This document shows, one piece after another, positions 168-38,077 of a DNA stretch of 64,000 bases; position 1 is the stretch's first letter; the number at the start of each line of letters is the position of its first letter. The stretch spans positions 4,616 through 68,615 of the forward strand of contig JAZROL010000017.1 in assembly GCA_045648665.1 (NCBI GenBank), given 5' to 3'. The DNA is from Candidatus Enterousia sp. (GTDB lineage Bacteria; Pseudomonadota; Alphaproteobacteria; Rs-D84). The position numbers and the translations under genes are program-made. The notes beneath the pieces were generated by a model. The model searched no databases, was not told the origin of the DNA, and saw only the letters and a program-made list of their open reading frames with translations.

Positions 168-347
168 TAAAAATTAAATGACCTTTTGGTCATTTTATTT
201 TTATCACGAGCATAGTATTGGGATTAGAACCCGCAACGAAGTTGCTAGGTTCGACAATGAGTAGATTTCACAAATGTTAATGCAGTGAAATCGTCACGAA
301 TGCAACGCAGACACAAAGTGTCAAGTGAATCCCCCTATCTCCGCCAT
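148..347 (+). repeat. 21-nt perfect direct repeat of the tRNA-Ser 3' end (148-168 and 327-347) bracketing a ~160-bp non-coding element
   Basis: GAATCCCCCTATCTCCGCCAT occurs at both positions. The intervening DNA has a terminator-like hairpin (ATGACC tttt GGTCAT plus T-run) and motifs (CAACGAAGTTG, GGTTCGAC, AATGTTAATG) also seen in reverse orientation in the elements next to tRNA-Gln copies. Confidence 0.8.
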
Positions 348-513
348 CCGTCTTTGCCGCAGGCAAAGCCGCGATCAGCGGATTTGACGCGTTGCAAAAC
401 GGAATGCCGCGGGTGTGCAACAGCACAGCCGGGCAATTAAAGAACGGTCCTGGCGACCGATTTTTTATATACATGCACGTTTTTTTCGTGATCGACCCCC
501 GCAACGATTCCAG

Positions 514-3761: not shown

Positions 3762-3766
3762 AATTG

Positions 3767-4060
3767 CTTAGGGCAGCTGACGGATGATCCTGCTGGATTG
3801 GCTCGCTCGACACTTCGTGTCGGCTGCGCGGCATTCGTTAGCACTCGAACCTCGCGTGGCTCGTTTTCGCTTACCCATAGTCGAACCAAAACAACTTCGT
3901 TGAATTGTCAAACCATCGCCACAGAACCAAAAATTCAACTCGTCATTGGACGGGTTGAATTTTTGGTTGTGCTATATGTGCAATTCGCGAGCCAATTTAC
4001 AGGAACTCTTATTCCTCGGTCAGGAAATTGAACAAGCGAAAGATAAATTAAATTTATCTG
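3767..4060 (+). repeat. B-type repeat element, copy 1 (degenerate tRNA-Gln-3'-end-like start, long hairpin, conserved tail)
   Basis: Aligns by eye with 8554-8795 (GGGCAGCTG..GGATT.GCTCGC.CGACAC....GTGTCGGCTGCGCGGCA.TCG ... CAGAACCAAAAATT.AAC...GGGTTGAATTTTTGGTTG.GCTAT.TGTGCAATTCGCGA.CC). Hairpin arms at 3925-3939 / 3954-3968. Confidence 0.75.
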
Positions 4061-4238
4061 GGTTGTATTAAATAACTTAGGGGCAGAACAACGAATATTT
4101 TTACACAAAAACAAGATTTTTCAAGTTGTTTATTTTCTAAAAATGAAAAAATATATAATGACAGCACATTTATTATAGCCAACAATGGTTAGTGAAACAA
4201 TCGTATGTTTCACAAGCTTTTTAACAAAAGGACGCGCT

Positions 4239-4487
4239 ATGGCAAAATATACAACAACAATAACAAACCCAAATATAAAAAATATAAAATATTTGTTTGA
4301 CCATCCAGATTCACAACCTGGTGATGTAGAACCGTGTGCTGGTACAGATACGGACGAACCAAGCTGTGGTATCGCGATAATGGATACTGACGGTGAATGG
4401 ATTGAAGTAAAAAAGAGAAATAAAATACCATATGGTATGTTTTTGAGATGTGCCACAAATGATGCTTACTATCGTCATATACGTTAA
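4239..4487 (+). CDS. hypothetical small protein (82 aa)
   Basis: ORF followed by a strong terminator. Start chosen at the internal Met (MAKYTTT...) of ORF 4185-4487. No recognisable domain. Confidence 0.4.
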   Translation: MAKYTTTITNPNIKNIKYLFDHPDSQPGDVEPCAGTDTDEPSCGIAIMDTDGEWIEVKKRNKIPYGMFLRCATNDAYYRHIR

Positions 4488-4499
4488 TCATTTTTTACC

Positions 4500-4540
4500 A
4501 AACATAGATTGTTGTTCAAAACCAACAATCTATGTTTTTA
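4500..4540 (+). terminator. rho-independent terminator
   Basis: Perfect 15-bp stem AAACATAGATTGTTG / CAACAATCTATGTTT with 8-nt loop, running into a T-run. Confidence 0.75.
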
Positions 4541-4566
4541 ATAATAGCGTAAGTAAAAAATAACAT

Positions 4567-5817
4567 ATGAATACAAAAATATATTATTTATCAAATGGTA
4601 TTCCGGTCGTTGTCTGCGATGCCATGTTCCATACAAACAAAATATTAATCAGTTTAAATTTTGGGGCATATGATGAAGCCCCCCAAGAATACGGTATTAC
4701 GCATTTTATTGAACATTTATTGGGACAAAGTGTCACAGGTGACCCCAGTTTCAGACATTTAAAACAAATGTTAGAAGTATTAGGCGGGTACATAAATTTA
4801 TATACCGATTATGAAAAAATCGGTTGTTTTGTGAAAGTGTTACCGGAACATTTGATTAGCGTTATAAAAATTCTCGGTTCACAAATAACAAATCCTGTAT
4901 TTGATGCTACAAGAATAGAACAAGAAAAAAAAATTATATTAGATGAGTACAGAAGAGCAGCAAATAATTCTTCTTGGGCACTTTTAAAATATAATAGTTT
5001 GTTTAAAAATACTGGTTTGGGACATTGTGTACTGGGGACGCCAGAAACTATCCAATCTTTTACATCGGACGGTTTAAAAAAATATTATTTTTCACATTTG
5101 TCAAACGATAAAATTAATATAGTTTTTGTTGGTCGGGTGCCTGATAGGCATAAATTATTGTCAGAGTTAGAAAGTGTTTTTGGTAAAATACCATTTGTGT
5201 CGTATAGGCGTGATTTTTTACCGGTTCAACAAATAATAAAAAATGATTTAAAGCCTGATGCGAAAAATGTAAAATTGGCTTTGGCTTTCGATGCAAAAAT
5301 ATCGTATGACCGTCTAAATCAAATCGCTATTGGTATATTTCGAAAAATATTGCAAGACAGGTTGATGAATGCTTTGCGTTATGAAAACGGCTTGGTATAT
5401 TCAATACAATGTTTGACAATGGGAATACATGGTGCAAAATTATACACAATAGAAACAGAAACTTTGCCTCAAGATATAGAAAGTGTTACCAGGTTTATCG
5501 CAACAGTTTGTTACGATGTTATAAATACACATCCTGTAACCACGAAAGAGTTGGAAATTGCAAAAAATGTTATAAAGTTCCAATCCGCTTGTATAATTGA
5601 TTCTATTGATAAAAGTTGTGATTTGTATTCGAAATACGTATTGCATTATAACAGTGTGTTCAATATTGAACAGGAAACACAAATATTGAACAAGATACAA
5701 TTGTCAGATATAAACAATATAGCAAAACAATTTTTTAATACCAATGTTTCCATTGTAAGCCAAGGACCAGATTTTGATTGCGATGTCATGAAAATATGGA
5801 GAGAGTTTTTTCAATAA
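4567..5817 (+). CDS. M16 (pitrilysin/insulinase) family zinc peptidase
   Basis: HxxEH zinc motif in GITHFIEHLLGQS near the N-terminus. Length and two-lobe layout fit M16. Confidence 0.8.
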   Translation: MNTKIYYLSNGIPVVVCDAMFHTNKILISLNFGAYDEAPQEYGITHFIEHLLGQSVTGDPSFRHLKQMLEVLGGYINLYTDYEKIGCFVKVLPEHLISVIKILGSQITNPVFDATRIEQEKKIILDEYRRAANNSSWALLKYNSLFKNTGLGHCVLGTPETIQSFTSDGLKKYYFSHLSNDKINIVFVGRVPDRHKLLSELESVFGKIPFVSYRRDFLPVQQIIKNDLKPDAKNVKLALAFDAKISYDRLNQIAIGIFRKILQDRLMNALRYENGLVYSIQCLTMGIHGAKLYTIETETLPQDIESVTRFIATVCYDVINTHPVTTKELEIAKNVIKFQSACIIDSIDKSCDLYSKYVLHYNSVFNIEQETQILNKIQLSDINNIAKQFFNTNVSIVSQGPDFDCDVMKIWREFFQ

Positions 5818-5837
5818 TCACAAATTTATATCAAGAA

Positions 5838-6122
5838 AGTTCGAAAATACTAACATTTTGACATTTTCTAAAACCTAACTCTCGAACTTTGTGAAAGTAT
5901 TAGAAAACAAATAAAAAACCGCTCTGGAATGAACGGTTGTCTATCTTGGTTGGGGCAGCTGGATTGTAATTCCCACTCATTAACATTCGTGGGCCCCTTT
6001 CACTGCGCTGCGCTTCGTCCCGAACCAAACAACTTCGTTGTATAGTCGAACCATCGCCACAGAACCAAAAATTAAACCCGCTTTGTGCGGGTTGAATTTT
6101 TGGTTGGGGTGTGCGGGCGAAA
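5838..6122 (+). repeat. inter-cassette repeat: M module, terminator copy, tRNA-Gln 3'-end copy, B-type element copy 2 and a G-site
   Basis: M inner inverted repeat AGTTCGAAAA...CTCTCGAACT (5838-5888). 5918-5965 matches the tRNA-Gln terminator plus 3' end at 11208-11261 (23 nt identical at 5943-5965). 18-bp hairpin 6063-6080/6088-6105. GGTTGGGGTGTGCGGGCGAAA at 6102-6122. Confidence 0.8.
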
Positions 6123-6128
6123 CGCGAG

Positions 6129-6157
6129 TTGTTATTGTGCTGTTTTTGTGATATAAT
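6129..6157 (+). promoter_or_regulatory. sigma70-like promoter inside cassette E1
   Basis: TTGTTA, 17-nt spacer, TATAAT with TG extension (tgaTATAAT). GGAGAGAG ribosome-binding site precedes the ATG at 6181. Confidence 0.55.
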
Positions 6158-6180
6158 ATCCACAAATATGGAGAGAGAAA

Positions 6181-6585
6181 ATGAAAAAAATAATAATTGT
6201 TCTTGTCAGTTGTTTTATATGTAATCCTATGTTTGCCGGTGCACTTAGTGATGCTATAAAAAAATTAGAAGAATCTGGTACTGGACAAGAATGTAGAGAA
6301 TTGAAAAATAAAATTAAAGATTTGAATAATCAATTAAACGTTGTTGAAGCCGAATACGAAACTAAATGTGTTATTGATGGTACGGGTGACATAGATACAC
6401 AAACGGATTCTGAATATGATGCTTCTGAACCAACCGAAGTTAAATGTGATGACGGTTCTGTTCCTGATATAAATGGATGTTGTACGGACGAAATTTACAC
6501 AGATATGGGACGCGAAGGTTTTAACTGTTGTCCGAAAAATGGTGGCGACTGTTTTTCTCCAATAAAAATAAATACGCAAAAATAG
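6181..6585 (+). CDS. small secreted coiled-coil / Cys-rich protein (134 aa)
   Basis: Signal-like MKKIIIVLVSCFICNPMFAGA, strong RBS and promoter. C-terminal CDDGSVPDINGCCTDE...FNCCPKNGGDC. Confidence 0.6.
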   Translation: MKKIIIVLVSCFICNPMFAGALSDAIKKLEESGTGQECRELKNKIKDLNNQLNVVEAEYETKCVIDGTGDIDTQTDSEYDASEPTEVKCDDGSVPDINGCCTDEIYTDMGREGFNCCPKNGGDCFSPIKINTQK

Positions 6586-6615
6586 TAAGTTATATATTCG
6601 TTTAATTATAACCTT

Positions 6616-6825
6616 TTTGCCCGCACACCCCAACCATTTTGAATAAAAAGACTATTCTTAGCAATGTTTGATTGGTTTTATAAGATTATTGCTAGTTCGA
6701 AAGTGTCAGCAAGAACATAAAATTTCAAAATCAGACTTTCGAACTCGCCAAACCCTTATGTTTCAAACAAAAAAATGCCCCGAAGGACATTTTGTTAACT
6801 TTGGTTGTGGTGTGTGGGCGAAACG
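6616..6825 (+). repeat. inter-cassette structured repeat (C-site, conserved linker, M module, G-site)
   Basis: TTTGCCCGCACACCCCAACC (6616-6635), AYTTTGAATAAAAAGAC linker, M inner IR AGTTCGAAAGT/ACTTTCGAACT (6694-6745), GGTTGTGGTGTGTGGGCGAAACG (6803-6825). Confidence 0.8.
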
Positions 6826-6890
6826 CAAGCTGAACAATTTGACTTTATAATAAAAATAATGATACACTTGAAATATACAAGGGTGAAAGT

Positions 6891-7499
6891 ATGGTTAAAT
6901 TTATTAAAACTTATGCATTGGAAATTTTTACAGTAATATCTATGGCGATGTTGCTGGTTGGTGGATTGATTGGTGATTTGTCAGTTATTCAAAAATTTAC
7001 TTTGGTTTATATATTTTTATTTGTTCTGCATGAATGGGAAGAAATGAAATATCCCGGTGGCTTTGCAGATTCTATTGCAAAAATGTTGGGTATAAAATTA
7101 AACAATGATATGAAACGTGCCAGTCGTATTCCAACCAGTATATTATTGCTAACATTTACTATTACACCGTTTGTTTTGCATGAATATCCAATAACAATAT
7201 TACCAATTGCATGGCTGGGATTGTTTGAAGGTTTTGTTCATATATTTACAATCCGTTTGTTTAAATACCCAAGATTTTATTCTCCTGGGTTTGTAACTGC
7301 AGAAATACAGGCTGTATTTACGATATTTGTTTTTACATATTTTGTAAGAAATGATATTGTATCATGTGGTGAATTTTTGATTGGTTTTATGGTTATGTTT
7401 GTGTGCTTTGTAATTATGCAAAAGAGCCTGACAGCAATGATAGGGTATAAATACAGCAATGTTTTCAAAGTAATAAAAAAACAATTTGCTAAGAAATAA
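6891..7499 (+). CDS. HXXEE-domain integral membrane protein
   Basis: Multi-TM protein with LHEWEEM motif in the second helix, as in the HXXEE domain family. Confidence 0.6.
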   Translation: MVKFIKTYALEIFTVISMAMLLVGGLIGDLSVIQKFTLVYIFLFVLHEWEEMKYPGGFADSIAKMLGIKLNNDMKRASRIPTSILLLTFTITPFVLHEYPITILPIAWLGLFEGFVHIFTIRLFKYPRFYSPGFVTAEIQAVFTIFVFTYFVRNDIVSCGEFLIGFMVMFVCFVIMQKSLTAMIGYKYSNVFKVIKKQFAKK

Positions 7500-7502
7500 T
7501 TG

Positions 7503-7692
7503 TTTCGCCCACACACCCCAACCACTTTGAATAAAAAGACCTGTTAGAGCAGTTTTTTATTAGTTTTATAATATTATTGCTGGTTCGAATGTTTTTAAAG
7601 TGTTATAAGCAGTTCGAAAGTGTGGATAAAGAGATAATTTTTCTAAAAATTACTTTCGAACTCGGTGAAAGTATTGCAAAACAAAAGAAAAA
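7503..7692 (+). repeat. inter-cassette structured repeat (C-site, linker, M module)
   Basis: TTTCGCCCACACACCCCAACC (7503-7523), the same AYTTTGAATAAAAAGAC linker as at 6636, M inner IR 7611-7662, tail CGGTGAAAGTATTGCAAAACAAAAGAAAA. Confidence 0.8.
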
Positions 7693-7698
7693 ATGATT

Positions 7699-8403
7699 TT
7701 ATTCATATTTCTTCAACAAATCTTTCCACGCCTGTGGCGCATCCACTTCATCAAAGTAAGCGCTTAAAAAACTAACCAAGGTTTGATGTTTTTCCTCTGC
7801 ATATTTGCGTCCTGGTTCTGTTAAGCACATATCGCGCAAATGAAAAATTTTAACAAAAAAGTGATTTACGCACGGATCGACTTTTGATTTTCTATACTTT
7901 TCGGCATCCATTTCTTCTGGAAAACAATCTGGATCAAAGAAAGGTTGACCGGTTCCAGAACGATATTCTATGCACCGTAACATACCCGTACATCCAGATG
8001 CATCACACATATCGGCATCGGATACAATGGCACCTTCAATGCCATATGCAGCAATACCCTTTAACCGTTTACTGTATCCAATAGTTTTTACAATATTGAT
8101 ACATTTTTCGCAGAATTCGGCATCAAATCCAGAACCAGACAATATGCGCTTTGTATTGATCATCAGCCGTTCAGATTCTTCACCAAACAGTTTATAATCA
8201 TCACAATCATGTAATAATGCAGCCGCCGCCACCAAATCACGATTAGCAGATGGAATTTCATCACAAATTTTCATTGCCGTATTATAAACGCGAAACACAT
8301 GTTTGTCATCATGCCCGTTAGAGTTATTTTTAAGTAATTCAATCACTGCGTTTTTTATATATTCAACACCTGTCATACAGACACCTTTATCGTTGTACAG
8401 CAT
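7699..8403 (-). CDS. HD-domain metal-dependent phosphohydrolase
   Basis: H...HD signature: DDKHVFRV ... AAALLHDCDDYK. The start may be the Met at 8376. Confidence 0.7.
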   Translation of the reverse strand: MLYNDKGVCMTGVEYIKNAVIELLKNNSNGHDDKHVFRVYNTAMKICDEIPSANRDLVAAAALLHDCDDYKLFGEESERLMINTKRILSGSGFDAEFCEKCINIVKTIGYSKRLKGIAAYGIEGAIVSDADMCDASGCTGMLRCIEYRSGTGQPFFDPDCFPEEMDAEKYRKSKVDPCVNHFFVKIFHLRDMCLTEPGRKYAEEKHQTLVSFLSAYFDEVDAPQAWKDLLKKYE

Positions 8404-8444
8404 ACTATCATAAAAAATTATATATGTCTAATTGTTATTAAAAA

Positions 8445-8795
8445 AGTTCGAAAGTGGTGAAAAATTGCCACTTTTTTAATTTCAACTTTCGAACTCGGTG
8501 AAAGTATTAGAAAACAAAAGAAAACCTGCCTTGATGGGCAAGTTTTGAAACTATGGTTGGGGCAGCTGGATTCGCTCGCACGACACATAGTGTCGGCTGC
8601 GCGGCAATCGTGACGATTGTGGTGCGTTTCACTTCCACAATCTACTGCTTGTCGAACCTTTGGTTCTCATCTCATTACCCCAGAACCAAAAATTAAACCC
8701 GTCTGATGACGGGTTGAATTTTTGGTTGGGCTATCTGTGCAATTCGCGAACCGAATTGGTTAAGATTGGGCAAGAGATTGATGAGCGGAAAGATA
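8445..8795 (+). repeat. inter-cassette repeat: M module, hairpin, tRNA-Gln 3'-end copy and B-type element copy 3
   Basis: M inner IR 8445-8495. 21 nt identical to the tRNA-Gln 3' end at 8554-8574 (TGGTTGGGGCAGCTGGATTCG). 18-bp hairpin 8684-8701/8710-8727. The tail aligns with 3961-4050. Confidence 0.8.
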
Positions 8796-8797
8796 TA

Positions 8798-9448
8798 TTA
8801 TTGCCGTCCAGATTGTGTTAAAGCATTAATTTTTAACAGCCAATCAGGAGTTTCTAGTAAAGTAAAAGTTTTCCCATCCCACCGCATTTTGATATAACCT
8901 GTGTTTGGTGTTCCTCCGTGTGCAAAATCAGTAAAATGTCGTATTAAAAAACTCATAACGCCACCATGTGTTGAAACACCGACTGTTTTTGCATCTGTAT
9001 TCTTTGCAATATTCAACATTGTATCAAGAACTCGTTTAGCAAACATATTATAGCTTTCACCGTTTTTTGGTGGTGCATAATTATCGTCAGACAAAAGAGC
9101 CAAAGGTATGTTTATCATATCTGCATTTATATCAAACTGTGTGTTAACAGGGGCATCCGTTGTTTTTACTATTTTTCCGCAAAGTGCACCAAGGTTCCTT
9201 TCTTGTAATCCTGGGTCTGTTATAATTTCTATATCTCGATTCTCAACAACAATTTTTGCTGTATCTAAAGCCCTTGATAAAGGAGAGCTGTAAATACAAT
9301 CAAATTGCACATCAGATAAATTTTTTGCTAACTGTTTTGCTTGATTAACACCATCTTGGTTTAATGGTATATCTAAAATACTTTGCACCCGTTTCTCAGC
9401 ATTGTAATCTGTCTGACCGTGTCTAAATATATAAAAAATCTTATTCAT
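8798..9448 (-). CDS. histidine phosphatase (phosphoglycerate-mutase-like) family protein
   Basis: RHG motif in IFRHGQTDYN and distal catalytic His in STHGGVM. Confidence 0.8.
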   Translation of the reverse strand: MNKIFYIFRHGQTDYNAEKRVQSILDIPLNQDGVNQAKQLAKNLSDVQFDCIYSSPLSRALDTAKIVVENRDIEIITDPGLQERNLGALCGKIVKTTDAPVNTQFDINADMINIPLALLSDDNYAPPKNGESYNMFAKRVLDTMLNIAKNTDAKTVGVSTHGGVMSFLIRHFTDFAHGGTPNTGYIKMRWDGKTFTLLETPDWLLKINALTQSGRQ

Positions 9449-9478
9449 ATAAAAACCTTTGTTGAATTATACCACAAA

Positions 9479-9609
9479 AGTTCGAAAATGACAATTTTTT
9501 GAGATTTTTTAAACCTAAACTTTCGAACTCACTGGAATTATCAGAAAACAAAAGAAAACTTGCCCCGATGGGCAAGTTTTGAAACTGTGGTTGGGGGGTG
9601 CGGGCGAAA
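9479..9609 (+). repeat. inter-cassette repeat (M module, hairpin, G-site)
   Basis: M inner IR 9479-9529, hairpin CTTGCC ccgat GGCAAG plus TTTT, GGTTGGGGGGTGCGGGCGAAA at 9589-9609. Confidence 0.8.
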
Positions 9610-9726
9610 TTCGAGCTTAAATAAAGTCAAATTTGCGCTAATTTTCTGCTCTTACATAATAAAGTTGAAAAAAACAATCTATTGGAATATAGTCACAGTA
9701 TAATGTTTAGCGAAAAGGTGAAATAA

Positions 9727-10560
9727 ATGACTTTGTTTTTTACGATTGTTTTTTTATTGTTAGTAATTGGATGGGTGTTTTATAACCTTGTAAGGGATGT
9801 TTATACATGGTCTAATCATTATGGTTGGGAAGAAAATTCGACACCAGATAAAAATGCAAAAATTCAAAATATTAGTTCCGAAAAAGTCCAATATTCAAAA
9901 AATGGTGCCAAATATAAAACAAAAATTACTTTTTCTGATGGCTTTTACTTTATTACGCATAAAACAGATAGAGAAGATGGGTTTTTAACATATAGAATTT
10001 TTATTTCCGATGAGCTTAGAGAAAAGATAATTAGTTTGGCTATAGAAAAACATAATATAGCTGTAGATAAGTTTATAAATGATAATCAACCAGTAAGGTG
10101 TGATATAAGCAAGCCTGATTGTAAAGCAAAAAAAGATATGACCAAAATAAAAATAGAAATTGTAAATGATGAAAAATACATAAATCTTAAATCTAGCGAT
10201 AGAATTAAATATCTCAACAGTTTAAAAAAACAAACCGTATCCGAATTGAACAAATTGAACAAAGTATTTGAAATAGAAAACAATAAAAGAAGAGATATAC
10301 CCGTTGATATTGCTAAATATATAAAATCCAATGATATTTCTTCATTAAAAAACGAGATAATAAAATTAGAAAATAAAAGCCTGGTTCTTGATGAATTGAT
10401 TACATTGGAAATTTACGATAAGTGCAAAAAGACAGAATATGAAGCATTGACCAAAAAATTGACTGCTGATACACAGTTAGACAAAAAAGCAAAAGATTCT
10501 ACTAATTCGGAAGAAGATACAGAGACTGAAAAGGAATATGGTTGGCAAAGTTGGGATTAG
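9727..10560 (+). CDS. membrane-anchored coiled-coil protein (277 aa), unknown function
   Basis: N-terminal TM (LFFTIVFLLLVIGWVFYNLV), then a Lys/Glu-rich heptad-like C-terminal half. TTGAAA-17-TATAGT promoter-like sequence upstream. Confidence 0.55.
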   Translation: MTLFFTIVFLLLVIGWVFYNLVRDVYTWSNHYGWEENSTPDKNAKIQNISSEKVQYSKNGAKYKTKITFSDGFYFITHKTDREDGFLTYRIFISDELREKIISLAIEKHNIAVDKFINDNQPVRCDISKPDCKAKKDMTKIKIEIVNDEKYINLKSSDRIKYLNSLKKQTVSELNKLNKVFEIENNKRRDIPVDIAKYIKSNDISSLKNEIIKLENKSLVLDELITLEIYDKCKKTEYEALTKKLTADTQLDKKAKDSTNSEEDTETEKEYGWQSWD

Positions 10561-10577
10561 TTTTTATATTTTATTAG

Positions 10578-10660
10578 TTTTGCCCGCACCCCCCAACCAA
10601 GATAGACAACCGTTCATTTCAGAGCGGTTTTTTGTTTGTTTTTCTTTCGTTTTTATCGGT
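10578..10660 (-). repeat. inverted copy of G-site, tRNA-Gln-type terminator and M-tail
   Basis: TTTGCCCGCACCCCCCAACC (10578-10598). The following 45 nt are the reverse complement of 5918-5955 and also act as a plus-strand terminator for 9727-10560. Confidence 0.75.
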
Positions 10661-10725
10661 TCGAACCTATATATAAAGATACAAAAACACGAAACAGAAG
10701 CTTGTTTGGTGAAATAAGTACTGAT

Positions 10726-11046
10726 TTATTTCTTATCATCACAAATCAATTTTGCTAATAAGCCCAACCTATTGAGATAATCAGAAAGAGCTTTCTTATT
10801 CGCTAAAACATCCGGGGTTTCTTCAAAAAAATAAACCCATTCTATATCATCAGAGCCTTTATAGGATAATTGTTTTGCTTGCTTTTGAGTGAGTCTTATT
10901 TTTCTGACTGATGGGTGGGTAGCGTAATCCTCAACCCATTCTGTTGTTCCGAGTGGTTTGTAACCGCGATTTAAAACAATATAATTATGGTTCCCTAGAT
11001 GTTTCATACAATAAGGAAAATGTGTGTAAATCAGTTCTTGTTTCAT
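10726..11046 (-). CDS. hypothetical protein (106 aa)
   Basis: Clean ORF between repeat modules. No recognisable motif. Confidence 0.4.
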   Translation of the reverse strand: MKQELIYTHFPYCMKHLGNHNYIVLNRGYKPLGTTEWVEDYATHPSVRKIRLTQKQAKQLSYKGSDDIEWVYFFEETPDVLANKKALSDYLNRLGLLAKLICDDKK

Positions 11047-11130
11047 GTTTTTCTCCTAATTTGTTTTCTACGCAATAAATATAATGATTTTTTTAGTAAT
11101 ATCAAGACAACATTAGTCGTTTTTACTAAA

Positions 11131-11240
11131 AGTTCGAAAGCGCCAATAAGAACATAAAATTTCAAGAATAAACTTTCGAACTCGATGAAAAACTTGCAAT
11201 TCTAATAAAAAACCGCCCTGAAACGAACGGTTGTACATCT
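11131..11240 (+). repeat. M module plus native tRNA-Gln terminator
   Basis: M inner IR 11131-11182. On the minus strand, hairpin AACCGTTCGTTTCAGGGCGGTT plus T-run sits immediately 3' of the tRNA. Confidence 0.75.
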
Positions 11241-11314
11241 TGGTTGGGGCAGCTGGATTCGAACCAACACTAGCGGAGTCAGAGTCCGATGTTCTACCAT
11301 TAAACTATGCCCCA
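11241..11314 (-). tRNA. tRNA-Gln (anticodon CUG), CCA encoded
   Basis: Minus-strand cloverleaf: acceptor TGGGGCA/TGCCCCA with U1-A72 as in bacterial tRNA-Gln, D stem GTTT/GAAC, anticodon loop CTCTGAC, T arm GTTGG TTCGAAT CCAGC, discriminator A, CCA. Confidence 0.85.
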
Positions 11315-11464
11315 ATGTCCGTCATATTATATATTTATTATTTCCTTTTTCAATCAAATATTTTAAGCCCTATAAAATTATCACACGCAATAAAACACAT
11401 ATGGCAAATAAAATTTTTGGTAGTATAATTATTCCGTCAAAATCTTAAACAAAAGGAACTTATT

Positions 11465-12700
11465 ATGAAAATTAAACCATTTGCCGGTATTCGCCCTCCA
11501 AAAGAATTAGTTAATGAAGTCGCTTCGCGTCCTTATGATGTTTTGAATTCAGCGGAAGCAAAAGCAGAGGCCGGTGAAAAATCACTTTTACACATTATCA
11601 AACCAGAAATAGATTTTGAACCGATTGCAGATGAACACGAACAAAAAACCTATGACAAAGCGGTCGAAAATTTCAAAAAATGGCAAGACAACGGATGGTT
11701 GGTGCAAGATGCTAAAGAAATGTATTATATTTACGCGCAAACTATGGATGGGCGTACACAATATGGTTTAGTTGCGGCCGCTAATGTTGACGATTATATG
11801 ACTGGCAAAATCAAAAAACACGAATTAACACGCAAAGACAAAGAAGATGATCGTATGATTCACGTTCGTATTCAAAGCGCAAATTTGGAACCTGTGTTTT
11901 TCGCATACCCAGATGTTGATGAAATGAATCAATTAGTTGCTGATTGGATTGCAAATCATGCCCCAGAATATGATTTTGTTGCCGAAGACGGCTTTGGACA
12001 TACTTTCTGGAAAATAGATGATGATGCAACAAATGCACACATCACCGAAATCTTTGCAAAAGTTCCTGCTTTCTATGTGGCGGACGGTCATCACAGAACT
12101 GCGGCTGCGGCACGCGTTGGCGCGGAACGTCGCGAACAAAATCCAAATCACACAGGAAACGAAGAATACAATTATTTTCTGGCGGTGATATTCCCTGAAT
12201 CCCAATTAAGAGTTATTGATTATAACCGCGTTGTCAAAGATTTGAACGGATTAACGGAAACTGAATTTTTGGAAAAATTAAAAGAATCTTTTGATGTAGT
12301 TGAAATGGGATCCGATGTTTATCATCCACACAAATTACATAATTTTGCAATGTATCTGGGTGGTAAATGGTATTCATTGACCGCGAAACCGGGCACATAT
12401 AATGACAACGATCCAATAGGTGTTTTAGATGTGACCGTATTATCTAATTTAGTATTTGATAAAATATTAAACCTTGGTGATTTGCGCACATCGAAACGAA
12501 TCGACTTTGTCGGTGGAATTCGTGGGCTTGGCGAATTACAAAAACGCGTGGATAGTGGAGAAATGGTTGCTGCTTTTGCACTGTATCCCGTCACAATGCG
12601 CCAAATTATAGACATAGCGGACACAGGCAACATAATGCCACCAAAGACAACTTGGTTTGAACCAAAATTACGCAGTGGTCTGGTGATACATAAATTTTAA
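11465..12700 (+). CDS. DUF1015 family protein
   Basis: Length ~410 aa and conserved ADGHHR motif (FYVADGHHRTAAA), typical of DUF1015. Confidence 0.8.
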   Translation: MKIKPFAGIRPPKELVNEVASRPYDVLNSAEAKAEAGEKSLLHIIKPEIDFEPIADEHEQKTYDKAVENFKKWQDNGWLVQDAKEMYYIYAQTMDGRTQYGLVAAANVDDYMTGKIKKHELTRKDKEDDRMIHVRIQSANLEPVFFAYPDVDEMNQLVADWIANHAPEYDFVAEDGFGHTFWKIDDDATNAHITEIFAKVPAFYVADGHHRTAAAARVGAERREQNPNHTGNEEYNYFLAVIFPESQLRVIDYNRVVKDLNGLTETEFLEKLKESFDVVEMGSDVYHPHKLHNFAMYLGGKWYSLTAKPGTYNDNDPIGVLDVTVLSNLVFDKILNLGDLRTSKRIDFVGGIRGLGELQKRVDSGEMVAAFALYPVTMRQIIDIADTGNIMPPKTTWFEPKLRSGLVIHKF

Positions 12701-36976: not shown

Positions 36977-38077
36977 ATGCAAAAGTATTTAAACCAAATT
37001 TTGTGTGGTGATTGCATAGATATTATGCGAAAGATGCCTGACGCATCTGTTGATGCCGTATTTGCAGATTCCCCGTACAATTTACAACTGGGCGAAAAAA
37101 CACTTTACAGACCCGAAGATCAAACCGCCGCACGTGCAGTCCGTGACAGCTGGGATGCGTTTGAATCAAACGACAAATATGATGAATTCACACGCGATTG
37201 GATGCGTGAATGTAAACGCATACTTAAACCAGACGGTGCAATGTGGGTTATTGGTTCTTATCATAACATATTTCGTGTTGGCGCAATATTACAAGACATG
37301 GGTTTTTGGATTTTAAATGACATAGTTTGGGTAAAAACAAATCCTATGCCTAATTTTCGTGGCACACGCTTTACAAACGCACATGAAACTTTGATTTGGG
37401 CGACACCTACAAAAACCGGGAAATACACATTTAATTACGAAACTATGAAAAAATTAAATGGTGGAAAACAAATGCGTTCGGATTGGGATTTAAATATTTG
37501 CCTGGGTGAAGAACGCGTAAAGGACAAAGACGGCAAAAGCCTGCACAATACACAAAAACCAATGGATTTGTTGCGTCGTGTAATTTTGTCTTCAACAAAA
37601 CCTGGCGATATAATTTTGGATCCTTTTGTTGGTTCTGGAACAACCGCCGCGGTTGCAAAAGAATTAGGACGTCAATTTATCGGTATAGATCGCGAACCTA
37701 TATACGTAGACGCTGCGCGCGAACGTGTTAATAATATAGTCCCTGTTGATTTATCAGACATAGAAGTCACTGCACCAAAACGTGATGCAATAAAGATTGC
37801 TTTCCGTGAATTGATTGATGCGGGATTACTTTACACAGGACAAACATTGGTTGGCCCACGTGGTGATCGCGTTATGATTACTCACGACGGACAATTAACA
37901 CATACTTTGTACGGCAAAGCATCTATCCACATAATGGCTGCGCGCATACAACACAGTGTCAGTTTTAATGGTTGGGATTATTGGTCTGCGGAAAAAGCAG
38001 ACGGCACATTGGTTGCCATTGACGAATTACGCAAATATTTACGCAACATAAAACAGAATATGAAACGCGCCGCTTAA
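36977..38077 (+). CDS. ccrM: CcrM-like N6-adenine DNA methyltransferase (beta class)
   Basis: Motif IV ADSPYNL near the N-terminus, AdoMet motif DPFVGSGTTAAVA later, ~80-aa C-terminal extension as in CcrM. Confidence 0.9.
   Translation: MQKYLNQILCGDCIDIMRKMPDASVDAVFADSPYNLQLGEKTLYRPEDQTAARAVRDSWDAFESNDKYDEFTRDWMRECKRILKPDGAMWVIGSYHNIFRVGAILQDMGFWILNDIVWVKTNPMPNFRGTRFTNAHETLIWATPTKTGKYTFNYETMKKLNGGKQMRSDWDLNICLGEERVKDKDGKSLHNTQKPMDLLRRVILSSTKPGDIILDPFVGSGTTAAVAKELGRQFIGIDREPIYVDAARERVNNIVPVDLSDIEVTAPKRDAIKIAFRELIDAGLLYTGQTLVGPRGDRVMITHDGQLTHTLYGKASIHIMAARIQHSVSFNGWDYWSAEKADGTLVAIDELRKYLRNIKQNMKRAA

Follow-up and report, generated by a model that had tools for sequence, protein, structure and literature searches.

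We give a probability of about 0.5 to the reading that three repeat-flanked units (E1, E2 and E5) in a 64-kb stretch of DNA, hereafter the window, are reverse-oriented cassettes in an array that accretes and shuffles on the 3' end of a tRNA-Gln(CTG) gene, served by an enzyme acting in trans. The host is a Candidatus Enterousia-like reduced-genome gut alphaproteobacterium of the order Rs-D84. The array is anchored on the tRNA gene, the arms of the units are homologous to the tRNA end, and partial copies of that end lie within the array as direct repeats. Module boundaries fall at the arm tips and at GTTCGAA, and both cassette content and array orientation vary among close relatives.

Layout of the tRNA-anchored array

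The 3' end of the tRNA gene, ...TGCCCCAACCA, appears as TGGTTGGGGCA on the plus strand, and the array that adjoins it (Table 1) holds about nine ORFs, some on each strand, together with six junction units and three stretches that partly copy the tRNA-Gln 3' end. Its G+C content (0.31-0.35) is below that of the remaining window (0.36-0.44). A degenerate N-unit at its far end indicates that the array extends beyond the peptidase M16 gene (4567-5817). A promoter-like site lies upstream of each ORF on either strand, and terminator-like hairpins number 15 against 4.2 expected. As the initial annotation had stated, each of the three repeat-flanked units contains one ORF and its own sigma-70-like promoter inside the arms, and the linker AYTTTGAATAAAAAGAC comes after the right arm in both E1 and E2.

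Table 1. Coordinates of the array, its parts and its anchor in the window
Feature	Position	Strand	Components
Whole cassette array	3762-11240	.	about 7.5 kb; ends at tRNA-Gln
Third N-unit, degenerate	3766-3992	-	N-unit 3770-3965; C-type site 3966-3992
Distal junction	5835-6100	-	degenerate J unit 5838-5888; terminator hairpin 5938-5917; 19-nt tRNA-Gln 3'-end copy 5947-5965; N-unit body 5966-6100; hairpin 6075-6093
Unit E1	6101-6636	+	S arm 6101-6122 (inner extension CGCGAG); promoter 6129-6157 (TTGTTA-17-TATAAT with TG); ORF 6181-6585 (134 aa, signal-peptide-like, Cys-rich); S' arm 6615-6636
Interior of E1-E2 intergenic palindrome	6637-6801	.	leader; J palindrome 6694-6745; A-rich tract; terminator hairpin 6772-6793
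Unit E2	6802-7524	+	S arm 6802-6823; promoter 6839-6868 (TTGACT-18-TACACT with TG); ORF 6891-7499 (202 aa; weak match to HXXEE membrane protein); S' arm 7503-7524
Forward (tRNA-direction) cassette, HD-domain	7611-8553	-	J unit 8445-8495; promoter 8430-8402; ORF 8403-7699; truncated J unit after the ORF, 7611-7662
N-unit	8554-8722	-	exact tRNA-Gln 3'-end copy 8554-8572 (19-21 nt); bidirectional terminator hairpin 8696-8715
Forward cassette, histidine phosphatase	8723-9587	-	J unit 9479-9529; promoter 9494-9466; ORF 9448-8798; C-type end site 8757-8723
Unit E5	9588-10599	+	S arm 9588-9609; promoter 9665-9693 (TTGAAA-17-TATAGT); ORF 9727-10560 (277 aa, without family match); S' arm 10578-10599
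Inverted terminator/T-rich unit, after E5	10600-10680		
tRNA-proximal forward cassette	10726-11240	-	terminator hairpin 11232-11211; J unit 11131-11182; promoter 11105-11078; ORF 11046-10726 (106 aa)
tRNA-Gln(CTG) gene, array anchor	11241-11314	-	ARAGORN; Rfam tRNA, 67.4 bits

The J palindrome between E1 and E2 reads AGTTCGAAAG-N32-CTTTCGAACT, its general form being GAGTTCGAAAG-N31-CTTTCGAACTC, and its TTCGAA core may mimic the T-loop of a tRNA. In the N-unit at 8554-8722, a structured core of ~70 nt is inserted in a T-loop-like GGTTCGA^GAAT and precedes the tRNA copy. The C-type end site of the histidine phosphatase cassette is TTCGGTTCGCGAATTGCACAGATAGCCCAACCA, and this cassette recurs within another array (contig L001). 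The initial annotation had overlooked the tRNA-anchored array, with its direct partial copies of the tRNA, its terminator hairpins and its forward cassettes devoid of inverted arms.

Origin and pairing of the repeat arms

The 22-bp arm TGGTTGGGGTGTGCGGGCGAAA has six matches with at most two mismatches in the window and none in 100 shuffles, and the rest of the 64 kb contains no further match. These six arms bracket the three units in the manner first described, the two arms of a unit being 95% complementary, and site orientation alternates (6101>, 6636<, 6802>, 7524<). The arms are diverged copies of the final ~18-22 nt of tRNA-Gln (...CCCCAACCA): the tRNA-Gln gene 640 bp downstream has a 3' end whose reverse complement is GGTTGGGG, and the arm GCCCGCACACCCCAACCA is four transitions apart from the tRNA-Gln end GTCCGTGTACCCCAACCA. 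They are therefore att-type repeats. The tRNA-Gln origin of the arms had not been recognized in the initial annotation. Besides these diverged copies, exact copies of the tRNA-Gln 3' end (19-21 nt) lie at 5947 and 8554 in tRNA orientation.

Two classes of arm can be distinguished. The forward class, S (ACTCGCG-TTTCGCCCRCACACCMCAACCA), forms the cassette end, with a conserved spacer plus a bidirectional terminator hairpin directly after it, while the inverted class, S', lies on the far side of cassettes whose ORF opposes the tRNA direction and adjoins a conserved leader and the J palindrome. Within the window, arms occur only inside the array anchored on tRNA-Gln, and in the window and related contigs the sites are confined to arrays, so a dispersed distribution, which would have counted against discrete units, was not seen. 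Unlike the core sites of tyrosine and serine recombinases, the arms lack internal dyad symmetry, and a short direct repeat (overlap region) was not consistently seen at unit junctions.

The initial annotation had proposed that the two arms of each unit share private variants. This covariation comes down to two positions: both E5 arms have a G at position 10, and both E2 arms have a T at position 14. In a set of 21 units from the window and related contigs, arms within a unit differ by 1.67 mismatches on average versus 2.27 when randomly re-paired (p ~0.002, kinship uncontrolled), and neighbouring arms around an intergenic palindrome are nearly as similar (1.9 versus 1.4 mismatches). One compensatory change, between the 98%-identical units of L099 and L100, favours pairing, whereas the discordant arms of the E1-family units in L137 and L138 speak against it. 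The private variants reflect linkage rather than a maintained constraint. In the chimeric unit of L137, arm variants are seen to travel with the adjacent half of a unit instead of being kept complementary, and the use of covariation as a sign of transposon ends fails on this point.

Recurrence and proposed exchange of modules between arrays

A search for further copies with other cargo, suggested at the outset, was productive: the arm pattern was detected in 41 metagenome contigs, where ~2 would be expected (our estimate from pattern degeneracy), and in 0 viral contigs, and modules reappear in new contexts. tRNA-Gln adjoins the arms in 14 of the 17 contigs scanned for tRNAs. E2 is 99% identical to units of L123 and L124 from arm to arm, exactly from TGGTTG to CAACCA and no further, in another chromosomal context with unrelated flanks and without target duplication. 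Similarly, the high-identity boundaries of the L099 and L100 units are the outer arm tips. The units are thus discrete modules bounded at these tips. The E1 block is 98.6% identical to one in L090 with CCA at both boundaries, the common block running arm-ORF-arm-palindrome interior and stopping at the next TGG. Identity also breaks at arm tips or J motifs in L082/L117, L004/L106 and window/L001, and the similarity of intergenic units is 70-92%, whether they share an array or not. Relatives whose DUF1015 proteins are 83-92% identical differ in array content and in how the tRNA and array are oriented with respect to the DUF1015 gene. Among the related loci, an empty site was not found.

The window yielded no recombinase of any class, the fetched loci gave no tblastn match at E < 0.01 to XerD or lambda Int, and no integrase was seen among the ~60 arrays and fragments surveyed. 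In 41 metagenome loci, 13 Enterousia-like genome loci and a viral collection, no cognate element that pairs these ends with a transposase was found; the one larger element seen, in L123, contains at best an ORF with weak resemblance to an HUH Rep. On the preferred reading, each cassette would be a self-contained expression unit (promoter, ORF and flanking terminators) that is gained, lost and swapped among strains by recombination at tRNA-derived joints, namely at the GTTCGAA motifs and where the arms end in CCA. The exchange enzyme would be encoded elsewhere, and its class we can only infer.

On this reading, exchange would be site-specific rather than homologous. That it lacks site-specificity altogether, with the arms, J palindromes and hairpins serving as regulatory or insulating elements (bidirectional terminators or operators) and homologous recombination after DNA uptake swapping the modules, is unlikely in our assessment. 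Breakpoints at each of the conserved motifs (S, S', J and T-rich tract), the enrichment of terminator and promoter signals and the missing recombinase would fit such a view, as would the chimeric unit in L137, whose breakpoint within the E1 ORF shows that homologous recombination does act in these arrays. But the common stretches are 11-29 bp in DNA otherwise 60-90% alike and make a poor RecA substrate, and tRNA-derived arms together with exact 19-21-nt tRNA copies are classical integrase marks. Moreover, small unrelated inserts sit exactly at the end of CCA in L123 and L105 and exactly inside GTTC^GAAT, which argues for sequence-specific cleavage. Several observations count against the tRNA-array reading itself, among them the missing recombinase, the arms' lack of dyad symmetry and the lack of a consistent overlap repeat at the junctions. 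The breakpoints are spread over more than one motif (S tip, S' tip and GTTCGAA), as they would be if homologous recombination acted between the sole conserved stretches, and plain tRNA integration yields direct repeats only, leaving unexplained why reverse-oriented cassettes have an inverted copy beside them, whose route of origin is likewise inferential.

The units could also be, as the initial annotation chiefly read them, non-autonomous transposons with terminal inverted repeats, akin to mobile insertion cassettes, in which IS-derived inverted repeats flank passenger genes; a transposase would act in trans and prefer the slot between leader and terminator hairpin. We regard this as distinctly unlikely. 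The 22-bp inverted repeats do lie at the element tips around a passenger gene without a transposase, identity starts and stops exactly there in E2/L123 and L099/L100, and arms within a unit are more alike than re-paired ones. However, a related IS is lacking, the repeats derive from a tRNA and are limited to one kind of locus, and, as already reported for this DNA, neither a target-site duplication nor a transposase is present: no consistent repeat flanks E1, E2 and E5 in the window or E1, E2 and the SDR-gene unit of L105 elsewhere, and no transposase was found in the window or in any locus. In the E1 family the S' arm was co-inherited with its outer flank in all four contexts, so that the arm is not always the element end, and single S arms close forward cassettes without an inverted partner. 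The absence of an empty site also weighs against transposition.

Very unlikely, in turn, is an integron analogue in which a ~200-nt intergenic palindrome (S arm, hairpin, J, leader and S' arm) folds as single-stranded DNA like attC and is split upon integration, so that the arms of a circular cassette come to flank the ORF. As in chromosomal integrons and CALINs (attC-site clusters without an integrase), whose arrays can do without a linked integrase, cassettes here mostly hold single genes of very diverse, mostly unknown cargo and are separated by conserved imperfect palindromes. The predicted fold of 6612-6827 (-36 kcal/mol, z = -4.2) has the arms paired, the arm tips CCCCAAC/GTTGGGG agree with RYYYAAC/GTTRRRY at 6/7 positions, and the E1/L090 block and the similarity of intergenic units both resemble what integrons show. 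Yet the attC-like palindrome of the initial annotation does not hold up. attC sites are 57-141 nt long and conserved in structure rather than sequence, whereas the palindromes here are 190-390 nt (2-3 times longer) and conserved in sequence, and the covariation term of the alignment fold (+0.38) lends no support beyond the invariant arms and J. The boxes run in the opposite order, AAC/GTT facing the palindrome interior, in place of an R''-L''...L'-R' layout with R' = GTTRRRY at the boundary. No integron integrase adjoins any locus, and no intI or other tyrosine recombinase was found in the window or loci; the array begins at a tRNA gene, not at attI/intI. Its cassettes carry their own promoters and terminators in both orientations, unlike the mostly promoterless, co-oriented cassettes under a common promoter in integrons. 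E2 reached L123 without the palindrome interior, and the discordant arms in L137 and L138 are a further difficulty.

Invertible segments (phase variation or a shufflon) with an invertase encoded elsewhere are extremely improbable, for despite inverted 22-bp repeats around 0.4-1.9-kb segments, ORFs between S and S' in both orientations, a tRNA-plus-array block inverted relative to the DUF1015 gene between relatives and a tRNA-Asp flipped between L127 and L128, near-identical copies in assembled contigs (E1 in four contexts, E2 in three, L099/L100) never occur in both orientations relative to S and S', ~14/18 units rather than half read S to S', and the promoters lie inside the arms with the ORFs, so that flipping would not switch them.

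Closest known analogues

Among known systems, the array comes closest to tRNA-anchored island arrays, Acinetobacter dif modules and integrons, and it departs from each in defining features. dif modules are likewise discrete gene modules with short bounding sites in alternating orientation, and they too recur in new contexts at site boundaries without target duplication, as E2 does in L123; by analogy, the enzyme here may act in trans without being encoded in the array. In contrast to the 28-bp XerC/XerD sites with a 6-bp spacer, TTTCGCCCRCACACCMCAACCA has no 11-6-11 dyad and no likeness to the dif consensus; the sites here derive from a tRNA 3' end, and the arrays are chromosomal and tRNA-anchored.

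Tycheposon-type arrays in Prochlorococcus are tandem integrative elements at tRNA genes. Such island arrays share with the present one the anchorage on a tRNA 3' end, direct partial copies between successive insertions (here 19-21 nt at 5947 and 8554), content that varies between close strains and cargo-only members without an integrase. They differ in that each unit here is one gene of 0.5-1 kb in a standard promoter/terminator frame, many units being bracketed by inverted tRNA-end repeats, and the tblastn search of all loci with XerD and lambda Int gave no integrase that would mark autonomous members. In arrays at tRNA-Glu the end sites resemble the tRNA-Glu 3' end instead, and direct tRNA 3'-end copies in tRNA orientation were also found after tRNA-Ser.

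Units and their tRNA-Gln anchor

The 22-mer TGGTTGGGGTGTGCGGGCGAAA has six copies in the window at two mismatches or fewer and was never matched in dinucleotide-preserving shuffles of the window. The copies pair as arms (table) with 95% complementarity, and inside each pair lie one plus-strand ORF (134, 202 and 277 aa) and, just within the left arm, a promoter-like site. The linker AYTTTGAATAAAAAGAC directly follows the right arms of E1 and E2. The initial annotation, which described three repeat-flanked units of promoter plus ORF, is therefore accurate in its description.

What that annotation overlooked is the tRNA origin of the repeat. A tRNA-Gln(CTG) gene is present at 11241-11314 on the minus strand (ARAGORN and Rfam), and its 3' end, ...CAGCTGCCCCAACCA, corresponds to plus-strand TGGTTGGGGCAGCTG, which identifies GGTTGGGG as the end of the tRNA. 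This end is exactly repeated over 19-21 nt, in tRNA orientation, at 8554-8572 and 5947-5965, and each copy is preceded by a terminator hairpin and an A-rich tract; the same pair follows the real tRNA-Gln. Four transitions separate the arm GCCCGCACACCCCAACCA from the tRNA-Gln end of related contigs, GTCCGTGTACCCCAACCA, and the homology of the arm to tRNA-Gln extends further in than its tip.

A junction unit of ~130 nt, composed of a palindrome J (AGTTCGAAAG-N32-CTTTCGAACT), the tract GTGAAAGTATTAGAAAACAAAAGAAAA, a G+C-rich hairpin and an end site, occurs six times, all in the array and nowhere else in the 64 kb. Three minus-strand ORFs (a 106-aa ORF, a histidine phosphatase and an HD domain protein) are forward cassettes, each made up of a J unit, promoter, ORF and end site without an inverted arm; E1, E2 and E5 are the reverse-oriented cassettes, with a repeat copy at both ends. 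The best-supported account of this region is a tRNA-Gln-anchored array of self-contained gene cassettes bounded by tRNA-derived repeats. With a degenerate further unit at 3766-3992, the array spans ~3762 to 11240 and encloses a peptidase M16 gene, while the window outside it holds housekeeping genes (ClpXP, PGK, RNase HII, rpoA, secY and ribosomal proteins). The array carries an HD phosphohydrolase, a histidine phosphatase, a membrane protein and small secreted Cys-rich proteins. The peptidase gene (4567-5817) is a possible cargo gene too, given its low G+C content (0.31-0.32) and its position within the array limits. Among the housekeeping genes, a solitary N6/N4 DNA methyltransferase gene with a RAMA domain is found at 36977-38077; TTCGAA is present in the J palindromes.

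A profile search separated two arm classes by their flanks. S arms, the forward copies of the tRNA-Gln 3' end, have an inner extension ACTCGCG, and after the arm come spacers of the AAAATTCAAC type and a terminator hairpin. S' arms, the inverted copies, have A+T-rich inner flanks, and after the arm come a leader, YWTTGAAY...AATATCAAGCGGGG, and then J. Following the direction of the tRNA, one meets tRNA or S first; then hairpin, T-rich tract, J and leader; next S', ORF and S; and then the next hairpin. The long intergenic palindrome suspected in the initial annotation is borne out, since an imperfect palindrome of 190-390 nt runs from each S to the S' that follows. Rfam (at gathering score and at E <= 1) returned only tRNAs and one chance hit, so the arms, the palindromes and the ~70-nt structured core that accompanies tRNA-end copies (N-core; together, the N-unit) lie outside described RNA families.

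Features of the array and extent of identity between near-identical copies (L numbers denote related contigs)
Feature or comparison	Position or contigs	Identity	Arrangement or extent	Flanks
E1 arms	6101-6122 / 6615-6636		outward-facing inverted pair	
E2 arms	6802-6823 / 7503-7524		outward-facing inverted pair	
E5 arms	9588-9609 / 10578-10599		outward-facing inverted pair	
~70-nt core copies, window	8573-8660 (-), 5966-6060 (-), 3800-3900 (-), 241-330 (+)			
~70-nt core copies, relatives	L001, L091, L097, L099, L100, L107, L112, L123			
E2	window vs L123/L124	99%	TGGTTG to CAACCA exactly	unrelated or ~65% alike
Contigs with identical tRNA	L099 vs L100	98%	S' to S	
E1 block	window 6092-6810 vs L090	98.6%	E1 and palindrome interior, to CCA of next site	
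Related contigs	L082 vs L117	97.8%	S tip to J end	
Window and relative	window vs L001	95.4%	J to just beyond hairpin after C-type site	
Related contigs	L004 vs L106	95.1%	begins at CCCAACCA	

Breakpoints and arm variants

The limits of the moving piece were read from near-identical sequences in different contexts (table). Between L099 and L100 the N-unit and J region separating the tRNA from the unit are strongly diverged, and beyond S the two contigs are unrelated. In L090 the next site after the shared E1 block is the tRNA; in the window, it is the arm of E2. From these breakpoints the joints are therefore the arm tips, immediately after CAACCA, and the GTTCGAA motifs. Small unrelated inserts are found exactly after CCA (31 nt in L123, ~130 nt in L105) and exactly within GTTC^GAAT.

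The arms had also been proposed to covary across each ORF. The arms match in all three window units; only two positions distinguish the units, position 10 (E5) and position 14 (E2), and at each of these both arms of the respective unit agree. A compensatory change separates L099 from L100 (GTGGTGTG/CACACCAC vs GTGGGGTG/CACCCCAC), and arm mismatches are 1.67 within units vs 2.27 for shuffled pairs (p ~0.002, in a shuffle that ignores relatedness). Against a constraint, neighbouring arms across the palindrome have 1.9 mismatches vs 1.4 for unit pairs. In the E1 family, moreover, position 9 is G/G in the window and L090 but A/G in L138; in L137, positions 9 and 16 are A/G and A/C, respectively. 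The L137 unit is chimeric: the 3' half of its ORF, its S' arm and its leader are almost exactly as in the window, whereas divergence is seen in its 5' half, promoter and S arm. Variants of the arms are therefore inherited together with the neighbouring DNA. The E1 family is decisive against a pairing constraint on the arms, and the agreement in the window reflects common descent of each unit and not selection for pairing.

Candidate mechanisms and known systems

The most economical mechanism is that cassettes would be exchanged at the tRNA-derived joints by an unlinked site-specific enzyme, for which our estimate is about 0.5. Among 30 window ORFs scanned with Pfam, only housekeeping genes and no recombinase, transposase or HUH domain came up, and tblastn with XerD and lambda Int sequences found nothing at E < 0.01 in either the window or ~135 fetched loci.

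Purely homologous exchange has a modest chance of being correct. It would show the same breakpoints, because the joints are the only sequences conserved between units; the exactness of breakpoints and inserts argues for sequence-specific events. Inverted-repeat transposons mobilised in trans, close to what the initial annotation had favoured, are rather improbable; no target duplication was found on comparing the window's E2 with its L123/L124 copy, which lies in a different chromosomal neighbourhood (DHDPS, GT8). An attC-like single-strand mechanism is improbable; the intergenic palindrome is predicted to fold with its arms paired (z = -4.2), and eight examples revealed no covariation beyond the invariant arms and J. 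Invertible segments are highly improbable, with ORFs running from S to S', against the tRNA direction, in ~14 of 18 units. None of the five mechanisms accounts for the origin of the inverted repeat copy.

Several other readings were rejected. Serine- and tyrosine-integrase core-site models were consistent with neither the arms, which have no internal dyad, nor the junctions, which have no repeated overlap or central dinucleotide. A MITE reading, in which the intergenic palindrome is mobile and the ORFs are bystanders, conflicts with the identity of E2, which extends across the arms up to their outer tips and no further, and with the absence of the repeats away from arrays. Arm pairing at the RNA level (mRNA end pairing or an RNase III stem) is at odds with the window units, whose promoter lies inside the upstream arm. 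When viral contigs were searched for excised circles with an abutted-arm pattern, a single match came up, attributable to chance in coding sequence of high G+C content. Near the arrays a single mobile-element protein was observed, a 161-aa ORF of L123 that has an HUH-like motif (WHWHLLLW) and matches the filamentous-phage/Rep family PF23343 below threshold (E = 1e-4); it was rejected as the enzyme since it is unique to L123, lacks a solved-structure match and is not a recurrent array neighbour. This ORF lies in a 4.5-kb element of L123 (9080-12600) adjoining a 16-nt tRNA-Gln(TTG) 3' fragment at the junction GTTC/CCGTGCGC; apart from the HUH-like ORF, the element's seven ORFs have no family match, and it also holds two paralogous ORFs (169 and 177 aa) with 34% identity.

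Returning to the unlinked enzyme, a more specific and decidedly tentative version is that Rs-D84 bacteria, with genomes of <1 Mb, may possess an undescribed integron-like system of cassette capture. Its joints would mimic the tRNA 3' half (the CCA-terminal acceptor strand and the GTTCGAA T-loop motif), each gene would bring its own promoter and terminators, the enzyme would be unlinked and possibly non-tyrosine, such as an HUH protein acting on single-stranded DNA, and the covarying ~70-nt core would be part of the site.

Dif modules are discrete and lie between inversely oriented sites, with the enzyme supplied in trans (PMC13141974). The array is nearest to them in architecture, with discrete modules, inversely oriented sites and, by analogy, a putative trans enzyme; in anchorage it is nearest to tRNA-linked island arrays and in ecology to chromosomal integrons, and it fails at least one defining feature of each. 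No published description was found in the full-text literature on Enterousia or on cassette arrays at tRNA-Gln. A 7.5-kb hot spot turning over single ready-to-express genes would be a main route of accessory-gene flux in a genome of <1 Mb. If a dedicated enzyme uses the joints, integrons and dif modules would be joined by a third natural design for the modular capture of genes, one whose sites were taken over from a tRNA gene; should exchange be homologous only, the array remains a clear example of gene shuffling framed by repeats.

Hosts, cargo and small inserts at tRNA ends

The DUF1015 protein flanking the array shares 83-92% identity with proteins from uncultured gut Alphaproteobacteria that bear the name Candidatus Enterousia. 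Enterousia belongs to the order Rs-D84, has genomes below ~1 Mb and, like other Rs-D84 members, is thought to depend on other gut organisms (PMC12306168). The same protein (gene 11465-12700) is 71-81% identical to Bacteroidales proteins, and because this is unusually high for a different phylum it suggests transfer of the gene within the gut. For neither the DUF1015 nor the E1 protein did an exact-protein look-up return a record.

In Enterousia-like relatives tRNA-Gln lies near the DUF1015 gene, with array content and orientation varying. It points towards DUF1015, with the array in between, in L001, L002 and L004, whereas in the window, L003 and L012 it adjoins DUF1015 and the array is on the opposite side; tRNA-Gln and the entire array are thus inverted relative to DUF1015 between close relatives (window 11241-12700). 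The contigs L001, L002 and L004 end at a tRNA-Gln 3'-end copy (in L001, inside the gene itself), as expected where assembly breaks on repeats. L007 contains only an N-unit and an empty hairpin-plus-site unit.

An exact scan found the degenerate arm pattern in 41 metagenome contigs, mostly from animal-gut samples, against ~2 chance matches estimated from the pattern degeneracy; it was absent from viral contigs. tRNA-Gln (TTG or CTG) lies beside the arms in 14 of the 17 contigs scanned for tRNAs, and 20 inverted arm pairs surround ORF units of 0.4-1.9 kb. Cargo of related arrays includes a methyltransferase-like ORF, a HipA/RelA-SpoT toxin-like pair and, as read from the sequence alone, a putative SDR-like dehydrogenase and isochorismatase-like protein. 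Records named Campylobacter, Opitutales and Desulfovibrio contain relatives of the E2 gene family (54-69% identity); the gene pool supplying the cassettes is therefore wide.

Homologues of the E5 ORF (56-71% identity) occur in similar arrays adjoining tRNA-Glu, with end sites that resemble the tRNA-Glu end. Those at tRNA-Glu(TTC) (L127-L133) and tRNA-Glu(CTC) (L084, 9590-10560) have the same junction units, made up of GAGTTCGTAAG palindromes, an A-rich tract and a hairpin, together with end sites of the C type, the end site finishing ...GTCCTGC and not CAACCA. A 1-kb cassette and the orientation of a nearby tRNA-Asp distinguish L127 from L128, both of which carry the same protein.

The ~70-nt core consists of GACAAGCAGTAGATT, a hairpin, CGTYACGRTTG.CCCGCAG, a second hairpin and CGAGG, and is embedded in a T-loop-like GGTTCGA^GAAT; in most cases an exact 3'-end copy of the adjacent tRNA comes next. 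Among nine copies, 11 of 21 predicted pairs are maintained through changes on both sides, and no Rfam family was found for it. Relative to the window, the L123 core is a clean insertion in GTTC^GAATG. At 77-340 of the window, tRNA-Ser(CGA) is followed by a terminator hairpin, ~60 nt, GGTTCGA with the core, and then 20 nt that perfectly repeat the 3' end of tRNA-Ser (GAATCCCCCTATCTCCGCCA), so the mini-element is not restricted to tRNA-Gln. Short G+C-rich hairpin-forming sequences are a third type of small insert targeting the same junction; they directly follow the terminal CCA of an arm or of a tRNA copy in L123 (8635-8665), L105 (~6570-6700, minus strand) and the window (340-375), and start with TCCGTCTT in L123 and the window and with CCCTTCGC in L105.
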